Below, piece by piece: positions 2,715-59,951 of a stretch of 59,951 nt of DNA. The first letter of the stretch is position 1. Each line of letters opens with the position of its first letter. A model generated the notes under the pieces. That model was not told the DNA's origin. It ran no database searches and saw only the letters and a list, made by a program, of their open reading frames with translations. The translations under genes and the position numbers were made by a program. The stretch is from Escherichia coli (GTDB lineage Bacteria > Pseudomonadota > Gammaproteobacteria > Enterobacterales > Enterobacteriaceae), in assembly GCF_003334335.1 (NCBI RefSeq), contig NZ_QOWQ01000031.1. One strand, 5' to 3'.

Positions 2715-4142
2715 ATGAACACCGCACTTGCACAACAAATCGCCAATGAAGGCGGCGTCGAAGCCTGGATGATTGCGCAACAACATAAAAGCCTGCTGCG
2801 TTTTCTGACCTGTGGTAGCGTCGATGACGGCAAAAGTACCCTGATTGGTCGCCTGCTGCACGATACCCGCCAAATCTACGAAGATCAGCTCTCATCGCTG
2901 CATAACGACAGTAAACGTCACGGCACCCAGGGCGAAAAGCTGGATCTGGCACTGCTGGTGGACGGCCTGCAAGCTGAGCGCGAACAGGGCATCACCATTG
3001 ACGTGGCTTACCGCTATTTCTCTACCGAGAAGCGTAAATTTATTATCGCCGACACCCCAGGGCACGAGCAGTACACCCGCAATATGGCGACTGGCGCATC
3101 GACATGTGAACTGGCGATCTTACTGATCGATGCCCGTAAAGGCGTGCTCGATCAAACCCGTCGTCACAGTTTTATCTCCACACTGTTGGGGATCAAACAT
3201 CTGGTCGTGGCGATCAACAAAATGGATCTGGTGGATTACAGTGAAAAGACGTTCACCCGTATTCGTGAAGATTATCTGACCTTTGCCGGGCAGCTGCCGG
3301 GTAATCTGGATATCCGCTTTGTGCCGCTCTCTGCACTGGAAGGCGACAACGTGGCTTCGCAAAGTGAAAGTATGGCGTGGTACAGCGGTCCAACACTGCT
3401 CGAAGTGCTGGAAACCGTGGAGATCCAGCGAGTGGTGGATGCTCAGCCAATGCGCTTCCCGGTGCAGTACGTTAATCGCCCGAATCTCGATTTTCGTGGT
3501 TACGCCGGAACGCTGGCATCCGGTCGCGTAGAAGTCGGGCAACGAGTCAAAGTGCTGCCCTCTGGTGTGGAATCAAACGTCGCCCGGATCGTGACTTTTG
3601 ATGGCGATCGCGAAGAAGCCTTTGCCGGAGAAGCGATCACCCTGGTGCTGACGGATGAGATCGACATCAGCCGTGGCGATCTGCTGCTGGCGGCAGACGA
3701 AGCGTTACCAGCTGTGCAGAGCGCGTCGGTGGATGTGGTATGGATGGCGGAACAGCCGCTTTCCCCGGGCCAGAGTTATGACATCAAAATTGCCGGTAAG
3801 AAGACGCGTGCTCGTGTTGATGGCATTCGTTATCAGGTTGATATTAATAACCTTACCCAACGCGAAGTTGAAAACCTGCCGCTGAACGGCATCGGCCTGG
3901 TGGATCTCACTTTTGACGAGCCACTGGTGTTAGATCGTTATCAGCAAAACCCGGTTACCGGTGGGCTGATTTTTATCGATCGCCTGAGCAATGTGACCGT
4001 AGGTGCCGGTATGGTGCATGAGCCAGTTAGCCAGGCAACTGCTGCGCCATCTGAATTTAGTGCATTCGAACTGGAATTGAATGCCCTGGTTCGCCGCCAC
4101 TTTCCACACTGGGGCGCGCGCGATTTGCTGGGGGATAAATAA
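2715..4142 (+). CDS. cysN: Sulfate adenylyltransferase subunit 1 (GTPase)
   Basis: 475-aa ORF with GTPase P-loop GSVDDGKST; 1-bp gap after cysD. Confidence 0.93.
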
Positions 4143-59011: not shown

Positions 59012-59197
59012 ATGCTGATTCTGACTCGTCGAGTTGGTGAGACCCTCATGATTGGGGATGAGGTCACCGTGACAGTTTTAGGGGTAAAGGGCAACCAGGT
59101 ACGTATTGGCGTAAATGCCCCGAAGGAAGTTTCTGTTCACCGTGAAGAGATCTACCAGCGTATCCAGGCTGAAAAATCCCAGCAGTCCAGTTACTAA
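59012..59197 (+). CDS. csrA: Carbon storage regulator CsrA
   Basis: 61-aa ORF: [61 protein letters not shown]. Confidence 0.97.
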
Positions 59198-59512
59198 TCT
59201 TTCCGCGTCTCATCTTTATCGGTGAGACGCACCCTCAAAATTTCTCCTTCACTCTATAGTCTTTTCGCTTTACTCCCGTTCATTCAACTTAAGTCTCCAT
59301 TTTTTTGCATTACTACTATCTGTCAGACCTCCATTCTTCTGTTGATAAAACACTCTTTTTGACGTTTTTACAGACTAATTGAACGTGAAGTGTGCAAACG
59401 ATAAAAGTGTAGGAAAAATTGTTTGACTTATAAGTCTCAGAAAGTAATATGTGCGCCACGCAGCGACGATGAGCGATAAACAAGTTCTTCGAAGCACTCG
59501 TAAGAGGCGTGT

Positions 59513-59605
59513 GGTGAGGTGGCCGAGAGGCTGAAGGCGCTCCCCTGCTAAGGGAGTATGCGGTCAAAAGCTGCATCCGGGGTTCGAATCCCCGCCTCAC
59601 CGCCA
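59513..59605 (+). tRNA. serV: tRNA-Ser (anticodon GCU)
   Basis: GGTGAGG/CCTCACC acceptor stem, long variable arm, T-arm GGTTCGAATCC, 3' GCCA; anticodon loop CTGCTAA. Confidence 0.9.
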
Positions 59606-59608
59606 TTT

Positions 59609-59685
59609 GCATCCGTAGCTCAGCTGGATAGAGTACTCGGCTACGAACCGAGCGGTCGGAGGTTCGAATCCTCCCGGATGCACCA
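59609..59685 (+). tRNA. argV: tRNA-Arg (anticodon ACG)
   Basis: GCATCCG/CGGATGC acceptor stem, anticodon loop CTACGAA, T-arm GGTTCGAATCC, 3' ACCA. Starts 3 bp after tRNA-Ser. Confidence 0.9.
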
Positions 59686-59800
59686 TATTCTACGTACTTT
59701 CAGCGATGAAGGTATGGAAGAGGTGGCGGTAATAACCGCAGGCACCAGGGAGGATAACGTTGCTTTAGCAACGGCCCGAAGGGCGAGCCGCAAGGCGAGT

Positions 59801-59819
59801 AATCCTCCCGGATGCACCA
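59801..59819 (+). repeat. 19-nt direct copy of the tRNA-Arg 3' end (AATCCTCCCGGATGCACCA) in the inter-tRNA spacer
   Basis: Identical to 59667-59685 (T-arm 3' half, acceptor 3' strand and CCA). Confidence 0.85.
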
Positions 59820-59883
59820 TCTCTTACTTGATACGGCTTTAGTAGCGGTATCAAAAAATCTGCAGTAAAGTAAGTTTCCCGAT

Positions 59884-59951
59884 GCATCCGTAGCTCAGCT
59901 GGATAGAGTACTCGGCTACGAACCGAGCGGTCGGAGGTTCGAATCCTCCCG
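59884..59951 (+). tRNA. argY: tRNA-Arg (anticodon ACG), 3' end cut by window edge
   Basis: Identical to the first 68 nt of the tRNA-Arg at 59609. Confidence 0.85.

Follow-up and report, generated by a model that had tools for sequence, protein, structure and literature searches.

The free-standing tRNA-Arg 3'-end copy in the argV-argY spacer of Escherichia coli is the terminus of the tRNA-linked repeat raV

The window (the whole stretch of Escherichia coli DNA that was analysed, 59,951 nucleotides) breaks off within a tRNA operon, on the upstream side of which lies csrA (59013–59198, read from the sequence). The following were located on the + strand: serV, tRNA-Ser(GCU), the first gene of the operon, 59513–59605 (ARAGORN, Rfam); argV, tRNA-Arg(ACG), 59609–59685 (ARAGORN, Rfam); a spacer of 198 bp, 59686–59883; and argY, tRNA-Arg(ACG), of which the first 68 of 77 nt are present (59884–59951) before the window edge cuts it. 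These 68 bases of argY are the first 68 bases of argV with no difference, and both the pair of identical tRNA-Arg(ACG) genes and the spacer of about 200 bp reported in the first-pass annotation were thus recovered. A promoter-like site, TTGACT-16-TAATAT, was found 5' of serV (59423–59450, +; consensus match only); its window coordinates were obtained from the L001 numbering minus 55000 (argV, 4610–4686 in L001, corresponds to 59609–59685, with a 1-nt difference in the ARAGORN end), and no other + strand promoter-like match lies between csrA and yqaB. ARAGORN and Rfam gave no tRNA call within the argV-argY spacer; a minus-strand "tRNA-Arg(tcg)" at 59629–59700 mirrors argV, looks artefactual and was set aside.

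The csrA-serV-arg region of the window was matched in 5426 of 5426 complete E. coli genomes. In K-12 the order is serV, argV, 198-bp spacer, argY, 62-bp spacer, argZ, 198-bp spacer, argQ, yqaB, yqaA, gshA, luxS; this layout agrees with the earlier recognition of the locus as E. coli serV-argV-argY with tandem arg tRNA genes, and with the earlier statement that no island is inserted here, the genes downstream of the operon in K-12 being yqaB, yqaA, gshA and luxS, with no integrase.

The repeat that drew attention to the spacer, AATCCTCCCGGATGCACCA, occurs twice in the window in exact form: at 59667–59685, as the last 19 nt of argV, which are the template of the repeat, and at 59801–59819 (+), free-standing, as had been reported; no further copy with up to 2 mismatches was found in the window, and the chance expectation of a 19-mer match is 0 (100 shuffles, 0 matches). 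The free-standing copy corresponds to tRNA positions 58–76 and holds the last 3 nt of the T loop, the 3' strand of the T stem, the 3' strand of the acceptor stem, the discriminator A and CCA. Upstream of these 19 nt the identity between argV and the free copy breaks off at once, the 20th base being G in argV and T in the spacer copy.

The K-12 operon was resolved by repeat analysis into the modules serV-argV-[TLR+B]-argY-[B]-argZ-[TLR+B]-argQ-[TLR], where TLR denotes a tRNA-linked repeat. The tRNA-Arg 3' end is present seven times, 4 times within tRNAs and 3 times free (after argV, argZ and argQ). A long spacer is built of a body of ca. 115 nt, the 18/19-mer and a B module of 62–65 nt; in the short argY-argZ spacer only the B module is present. 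In the window, the complete TLR unit (59686–59819, +, 134 nt) begins directly 3' of the argV CCA and closes with the free-standing CCA, and the B module follows at 59820–59883 (+). Both the free CCA and the argY CCA are followed by the sequence TCTCTTACTTGATA(C/T)GGCTTTAGTAGCGGT. Since every long spacer repeats the body, the 18/19-mer and B, the free 19-mer is the tail of a 134-nt unit and not a lone fragment; the same unit recurs after argZ and after argQ.

The segment 59686–59819 is the catalogued TLR raV of the E. coli arg operon, an already known element. In K-12 there are 22 TLRs at 10 loci; the first sighting was that of Egan and Landy (1978), and the catalogue is that of Rudd (1999). 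[quoted passage not shown] The unit between argV and argY lies directly 3' of a tRNA gene within one operon; its end is identical to the 3' end of the upstream gene at 19 of 19 nt; it is similar to other TLRs (the tyrT, Lys, Pro, Gln and 5S-linked cores); and it is listed among the 22 TLRs of K-12 by way of the PMC8144298 supplement. The strain table of that supplement gives delta(argY/Z/Q, raQ/Z/V) inside the delta-22-TLR strain, and since the table names raQ/Z/V together with argY/Z/Q, the units of the arg operon are those catalogued as raV, raZ and raQ; the name raV was assigned to the unit of the argV-argY spacer by the published deletion coordinates and the gene order. Searches of the literature on the argV/argY spacer, on RttR and on the core sequence yielded no useful result. 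What was noticed in the window is a rediscovery: the class goes back to 1978, its catalogue to 1999, and a name already exists for the copy at this locus.

Relation of the arg unit to the Rfam family RtT (RF00391): 59686–59819 gave 34.7 bits (E 1.8e-5) and the three arg units of K-12 gave 31.0, 29.2 and 22.8 bits; the 4 RtT units of the tyrT locus, on whose repeats the model was built, gave 133–137 bits. The gathering score of RF00391 is 45 bits; membership of the arg unit is ruled out by scores below this value, and the unit is a relative of the family only. The core AACGTTGC-loop-GCAACGGCCCGAAGGGCGA-hairpin-GAGTA is common to the arg unit, the RtT repeats of tyrT and the element between T1 and T2 of rrnB. 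A small protein like tpr was also considered for the arg unit and rejected: the sole ORF has 8 codons (MKVWKRWR) and, as judged by eye, is apparently unconserved in other genera.

Predicted structure of the 134-nt raV RNA: MFE −60.3 kcal/mol, z −5.41; the three-hairpin core (59758–59796, +; RNAalifold consensus, common to other TLRs) consists of H1, CGTTGC-TTTA-GCAACG, 59758–59773; H2, CCC-GAA-GGG, 59775–59783; and H3, GCC-GCAA-GGC, 59787–59796. The first 14 nt of the free 18-mer (59801–59814) are predicted to pair with GCACCAGGGAGGAU (in DNA letters GCACCAGGGAGGAT, the 5' strand of the closing helix, 59742–59755, +); the duplex has −19.8 kcal/mol versus a shuffle mean of −11.9, and one as good was reached in 0 of 200 shuffles. 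The strand 59742–59755 resembles two 5' strands joined together, that of the acceptor stem (GCAUCCG in the tRNA) and that of the T stem (GGAGG), and in the predicted fold the closing helix encloses H1, H2 and H3 at the place where the T loop would be.

The fold was compared over alignment A1, which contains 15 arg-type units from eight species, six of them outside E. coli; RNAalifold gave a consensus structure with 96.9% of cells paired. Double-sided changes were found in 3 pairs and 9 cells, a value reached by 0 of 500 shuffles; with 3 such pairs, covariation inside the arg type by itself is modest. For the closing helix, which beats shuffled controls in most units, z is about −3 in the arg and tyr types; it is weakened by mismatches in raZ and raQ of K-12 (z −0.5 and −1.4), and in a Hafnia copy a compensatory change is seen within it (GGGAAGAT/ATCTTCCT; compensated pair GGGAAGAU/AUCUUCCU). 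The sequences of H1 and H2 hardly vary between loci and genera; for H3, at least 12 distinct stem sequences, all able to pair, were counted over the Arg, Tyr, Lys, Pro, Gln and 5S types. The unit of Yersinia nurmii carries, directly before the core, a 37-nt copy of tRNA-Arg positions 22–59 (score 50 versus a shuffle maximum of 25), and this copy points to a tRNA duplicate that carried the core in its T loop as the origin of the TLR; the body of the E. coli unit compared with tRNA-Arg gave a score of 14, equal to the shuffle mean, and its likeness to a tRNA can no longer be recognised.

Relatives were scanned for the 18-nt core in one genome per species, and at least 120 stretches were retrieved, each of which was analysed for its context. 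In Enterobacterales the core is followed, among the matches listed, by the 3' end of tRNA-Arg, -Tyr, -Lys, -Pro or -Gln or of 5S rRNA, and in 53 of the 63 informative TLRs at other loci and in other species, again among the matches listed, the last 18–19 nt are those of the nearest upstream tRNA. Variants of the local tRNA are tracked by the TLR: ...CCCCCGCCACCA for Tyr in L025 and L099; ATCTTCCTGGGTGCACCA for Arg in Yersinia and Hafnia; ATCCCGCACG... for Lys in Hafnia. This tRNA identity of the 19-mer could be kept by selection on processing or by gene conversion; either could have the effect. The constraint on the 19-mer is not absolute, because the arg-linked free copies of Salmonella houtenae match the tRNA at just 18/19 and 17/19 positions; decayed TLR copies were found in L021, L029, L061 and L066.

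The csrA-serV-arg-yqaB locus with a TLR was found in Salmonella, Enterobacter, Kosakonia, Phytobacter, Brenneria and Hafnia, and the spacer of the serV-arg operon that holds the TLR varies among these genera; in Yersinia nurmii a TLR stands after a tRNA-Arg on a short contig. Because relatives have the unit at the syntenic locus with no mobile element, the TLR at the arg locus is ancestral. A comparison of the spacers across relatives had been set in the first-pass annotation as the check on its own proposal, and the outcome (the unit at the syntenic locus of six genera and at a tRNA-Arg of Yersinia, with no mobile element) went against that proposal.

Within E. coli the first spacer contains 0 TLRs (L082), 1 (the window and K-12) or 2 identical ones in tandem (strain EC13, in which this spacer is 332 bp); in strain SCPM-O-B-8794 the first two spacers are without a TLR. 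With the serV-argV-TLR junction as query, the contiguous layout of the window was found in 12 of 24 rows spread evenly through the ranking; the figure of 3761/5426 genomes returned for this query is not the frequency of the window layout, BLAST pieces from neighbouring units having been joined in it. Since the number of TLRs in the first spacer differs between strains, unequal recombination in the arg operon occurs; it reshuffles an existing module and makes no scar. Unequal recombination among tandem copies, as proposed earlier, thus stands as a process at this locus (0, 1 or 2 units by strain) and is not supported as the origin of the 19-mer. The 19-mers, the TLR bodies and the B spacers would serve as the DNA substrates of such exchanges, by which the copy number of TLRs and of tRNA-Arg genes may shift from strain to strain. 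In strain IH5, argV abuts truncated phage tail genes, and use of the gene as an att site was considered; there is no adjacent integrase, the CDS is flagged incomplete, and the case was taken as a rearrangement or an assembly issue.

The arg unit was compared with further known systems. With RtT/RttR of the tyrT-tyrV operon it shares the string AACGTTGC-loop-GCAACGRCCCGAAGGGYGA-hairpin-GAGTAAT and the combination of a 19-nt copy of the local tRNA end with an upstream complement to that end; it differs in length (134 nt versus 178), is without the segment of ca. 45 nt between the strand of the closing helix and H1, ends in tRNA-Arg and not in tRNA-Tyr sequence, and has no tpr-like ORF. With RrA, RrB and RrF, which lie between T1 and T2 of the rrn operons, it has in common the H1/H2 sequence and the terminal copy of the 3' end of the upstream gene, whereas those elements are linked to 5S rRNA, flanked by terminators and equipped with GGA motifs. 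The tRNA att sites of integrative elements are similar in that a direct repeat, from T loop to CCA, flanks a foreign-looking segment at argV; they differ in that the "insert" at argV is 115 nt, conserved and structured, with no integrase, island, or phage or plasmid counterpart. The 3'ETS of leuZ arises, as the arg TLR would, from the processing of a polycistronic tRNA precursor and may survive as an RNA (PMC8144298), but it is not a repeat family and has no tRNA 3'-end copy, and a sponge function has been shown for the 3'ETS, not for the arg TLRs.

The explanation that accounts for these observations jointly, and to which a probability of roughly 0.65 is assigned, is that raV, one of three TLRs of serV-argVYZQ, ends on its 3' side in the 19-mer and that the 19-mer has a role in tRNA-like 3'-end processing and in stability. 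tRNA maturation in E. coli proceeds by RNase E and exonucleases. The repeat raV would be transcribed together with the tRNAs from the serV promoter, because the sole promoter-like site lies 5' of serV and no + strand terminator-like site was found before the end of the last TLR; none lies inside raV, in which an internal + strand promoter-like site was not found either. Processing of the precursor would then cut raV out as a by-product RNA of ca. 134 nt; by analogy with RttR and RrB, we infer the release of such a discrete arg TLR RNA. In it, the opening 8–14 nt of the 19-mer would pair with the upstream acceptor/T-stem-like GCACCAGGGAGGAU, and the three-hairpin core, closed off by this pairing, would stand in for the T loop of a minihelix-like domain. 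The ...GCACCA end, together with the A/U-rich sequence after it, which is also the one found after genuine tRNAs, would act as a tRNA 3'-processing signal: RNase E would cut just downstream of the 19-mer, exonucleases would trim back to the protected CCA, and this would give the raV RNA a defined and stabilised 3' end. The model takes up one put forward for RrB: there the 3' end was mapped 3 nt past the repeat, and recognition of the repeat by RNase E is proposed by the authors (PMC8144298). The TLR is evidently unneeded for the maturation of the tRNAs themselves, because the short TLR-less argY-argZ spacer is evidently processed normally; any TLR function is dispensable in the laboratory, because a K-12 derivative without all 22 TLRs could be built (PMC8144298).

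The first-pass annotation preferred a recombination scar. On such a reading the 19-mer would be a leftover tRNA fragment from unequal crossing-over or slippage among tandem tRNA-Arg genes, with no significance of its own. The variable number of TLRs (0, 1 or 2) in the first spacer within E. coli, the likeness of the sequence after the free CCA to that after a real tRNA, and the 37-nt tRNA-Arg copy of Yersinia nurmii, which suggests that the units descend from a tRNA duplication, all speak for it; they are countered by the finding that a 134-nt TLR, conserved and structured, has the 19-mer as its constant 3' end. Among the matches listed, the 19-mer is always joined to one conserved core, also at Tyr, Lys, Pro, Gln and 5S loci, and the boundary of the 18–19 nt always falls at tRNA position 58/59; the unit is kept across several enterobacterial families, follows species-specific changes of the tRNA and has a stable predicted fold with compensatory changes. 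These properties are unexpected of a random scar. The scar is largely refuted by this conservation and by the common core, and is regarded as quite unlikely. A duplication of an att site by an integrase, the other option named there, would make the 115-nt body a small integrated element or the descendant of one, and the two 19-mers blocks of attL/attR type, placed in the stretch from T loop to CCA that is a common target of tyrosine integrases. The X-Y-X layout with an identity block at tRNA positions 58–76 fits it, this region being the one that, as Williams reportedly described in 2002, is used by integrases of the T-loop type; homologous bodies on non-homologous targets (tRNAs and 5S rRNA) suggest that the core once reached new 3' ends, and presence or absence of the TLR differs by spacer and by strain. 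Against this stands the absence of any integrase, cargo or island at the locus, with only 115 nt between the repeats and then the core genes yqaB, yqaA, gshA and luxS in K-12; in Salmonella, too, yqaB lies downstream of the arg locus, with core genes only. A BLAST search of argV and its spacer against phage and plasmid records gave no genuine phage or plasmid with the unit: phage matches cover the tRNA only, the one full-length match being a mis-filed Salmonella chromosomal contig, and full-length matches in the plasmid collection are Mb-scale and probably chromosomal records, with one short match on a 14-kb Klebsiella plasmid record. The body, moreover, is structured non-coding sequence and, across the TLRs, parts of the bodies stem from the local tRNA, something not accounted for by a simple attR; the TLR subtypes are tRNA-type-specific and vertically inherited across genera, and any insertion would be ancient. 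An att duplication at argV is thus considered very improbable, and the option was dropped; an ancient insertion-like origin of the TLRs may have taken place, given the homologous cores on non-homologous genes.

The arg TLR RNA might instead act in trans, as a sponge or a protein binder in the manner of RrA/B/F or of the leuZ 3'ETS, in which case the 19-mer would matter only for making the RNA. The conserved structure, with H1 and H2 invariant across loci and genera, and the very stable predicted fold are compatible with such a role, and the rrn-linked RrA, RrB and RrF bind Hfq and CsrA in vitro (PMC8144298). On the other hand, the 19 TLRs of tRNA operons have scores below 0.01 in a predictor of CsrB/C-type RNAs, and the earlier phenotype of RtT has been retracted (both PMC8144298); the strain lacking the 22 TLRs could be built, no target or partner is known, and TLR copies decay in some lineages. 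A trans-acting RNA is accordingly judged unlikely, and processing and stabilisation of the raV 3' end by its tRNA-like terminus is retained as the preferred explanation.

A further proposal, put forward tentatively and held to be possible at best, is suggested by the occurrence of the core away from tRNA and rRNA genes: the core of the TLRs would be one form of a wider, uncurated structured repeat of Gammaproteobacteria, and the TLR itself a mimic of the 3' domain of tRNA or 5S rRNA, born when the element entered duplicated tRNAs. The core, flanked by acceptor-like and T-stem-like strands, would then take the position of the T loop, and the invariant H1 and H2 would mark a conserved RNA- or DNA-binding partner, e.g., a processing enzyme or a recombinase. 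The value of the class lies in 3' ends that follow the local tRNA across species and in a core apparently present beyond tRNA operons, in other Gammaproteobacteria. The terminator region T1-T2 of rrnB, including the rrnB version of the TLR, is carried by many cloning vectors, and a partner or a role, if found for the TLRs, would bear on the processing of tRNA operons, on the dynamics of tRNA gene copy number and on a sequence present in widely used vectors.

Outside the tRNA operons, no tRNA or rRNA was found within several hundred bases of the units of ca. 73 nt in which the core hairpins also occur, and at threshold no Rfam family was found in their loci other than one tRNA (L055, Pseudomonas), ca. 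1.4 kb off. These units consist of H1-H2 and a covarying H3, are intergenic, and stand in 1–4 tandem copies in Pseudomonas, Alloalcanivorax, Stenotrophomonas and Pectobacterium (among the matches listed); they are flanked by A-tracts and terminator-like hairpins.

At the first arg spacer of E. coli strain EC13 (stretch L125, 1887-2218), the 134-nt unit of the tRNA-linked repeat (TLR) was found twice in tandem, the copies being identical; the spacer measures 332 bp because both units lie within it. The doubled unit is a tandem duplication of recent date, like that of the tyrT array. At the same locus of E. coli strain IH5, argV adjoins phage tail genes (L124, 2570-2980): a truncated CDS annotated as 'phage minor tail protein L' abuts and overlaps argV, and more tail genes lie there on the opposite strand; no integrase was seen within the L124 stretch. 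The IH5 arrangement has three readings: the DNA was rearranged at argV, a prophage joins the tRNA there, or the assembly is at fault.

The TLR body in the window contains an 8-codon ORF (59706-59732; ATG AAG GTA TGG AAG AGG TGG CGG TAA, encoding MKVWKRWR). Since it is shortened in the K-12 copies raZ and raQ and its conservation in other genera is not apparent, this ORF is probably non-coding, in which it differs from the tyrT repeat with its annotated tpr ORF.

Two arg-linked TLRs were located in Salmonella enterica subsp. houtenae (L126, 1578-1773 and 1851-1990); their copies of the tRNA 3' end deviate from the tRNA at 1/19 and 2/19 positions, and therefore the repeat has drifted in that lineage. 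The source record of L126 is a 691-kb Salmonella chromosomal contig that is filed among a 'phages' collection. A further arg-linked TLR was located in Yersinia nurmii (L088, 2034-2195, minus strand), where tRNA-Arg positions 22-59 are near-copied over 37 nt immediately before the core; the whole looks like a pseudo-tRNA with an insert of ~60 nt in the T loop. A terminator-like hairpin stands at its start.

A core of hairpins H1 and H2 identical to that of the TLR was observed in units of ~73 nt (L054, L055, L077-L079, L100, L102, L109, L007 and L036), arranged as hairpin-TTTTT-AACGTTGCGCAGCAACGGCCCGAAGGGTG-hairpin-CCATAAAAAA. These units are intergenic in Pseudomonas, Alloalcanivorax, Pectobacterium and Stenotrophomonas, single or 2-4 in tandem (e.g., L054, about 3540-3800, and L102, about 950-1170, both minus strand), and some have a stop codon on one side and a terminator on the other. 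They adjoin neither tRNA nor rRNA genes; Rfam gave no family at threshold on these loci except a tRNA in L055, its only call, ~1.4 kb from the units there.

Two kinds of call opposite tRNA-Arg genes appear to be mirror-image artefacts of the real tRNAs: the ARAGORN tRNA-Arg(tcg) overlapping argV (window 59629-59700, minus strand), and weak antisense Rfam 'Plastid-ycf2' matches, which occur opposite every tRNA-Arg.

The B spacer, between the TLR and the next tRNA-Arg, carries an imperfect hairpin, GATACGGC-TTTAGTA-GCGGTATC (window 59831-59856; also L126, about 1720-1745), that may act in processing the spacer between the tRNAs; it is present in all B modules, in an altered version in Salmonella.
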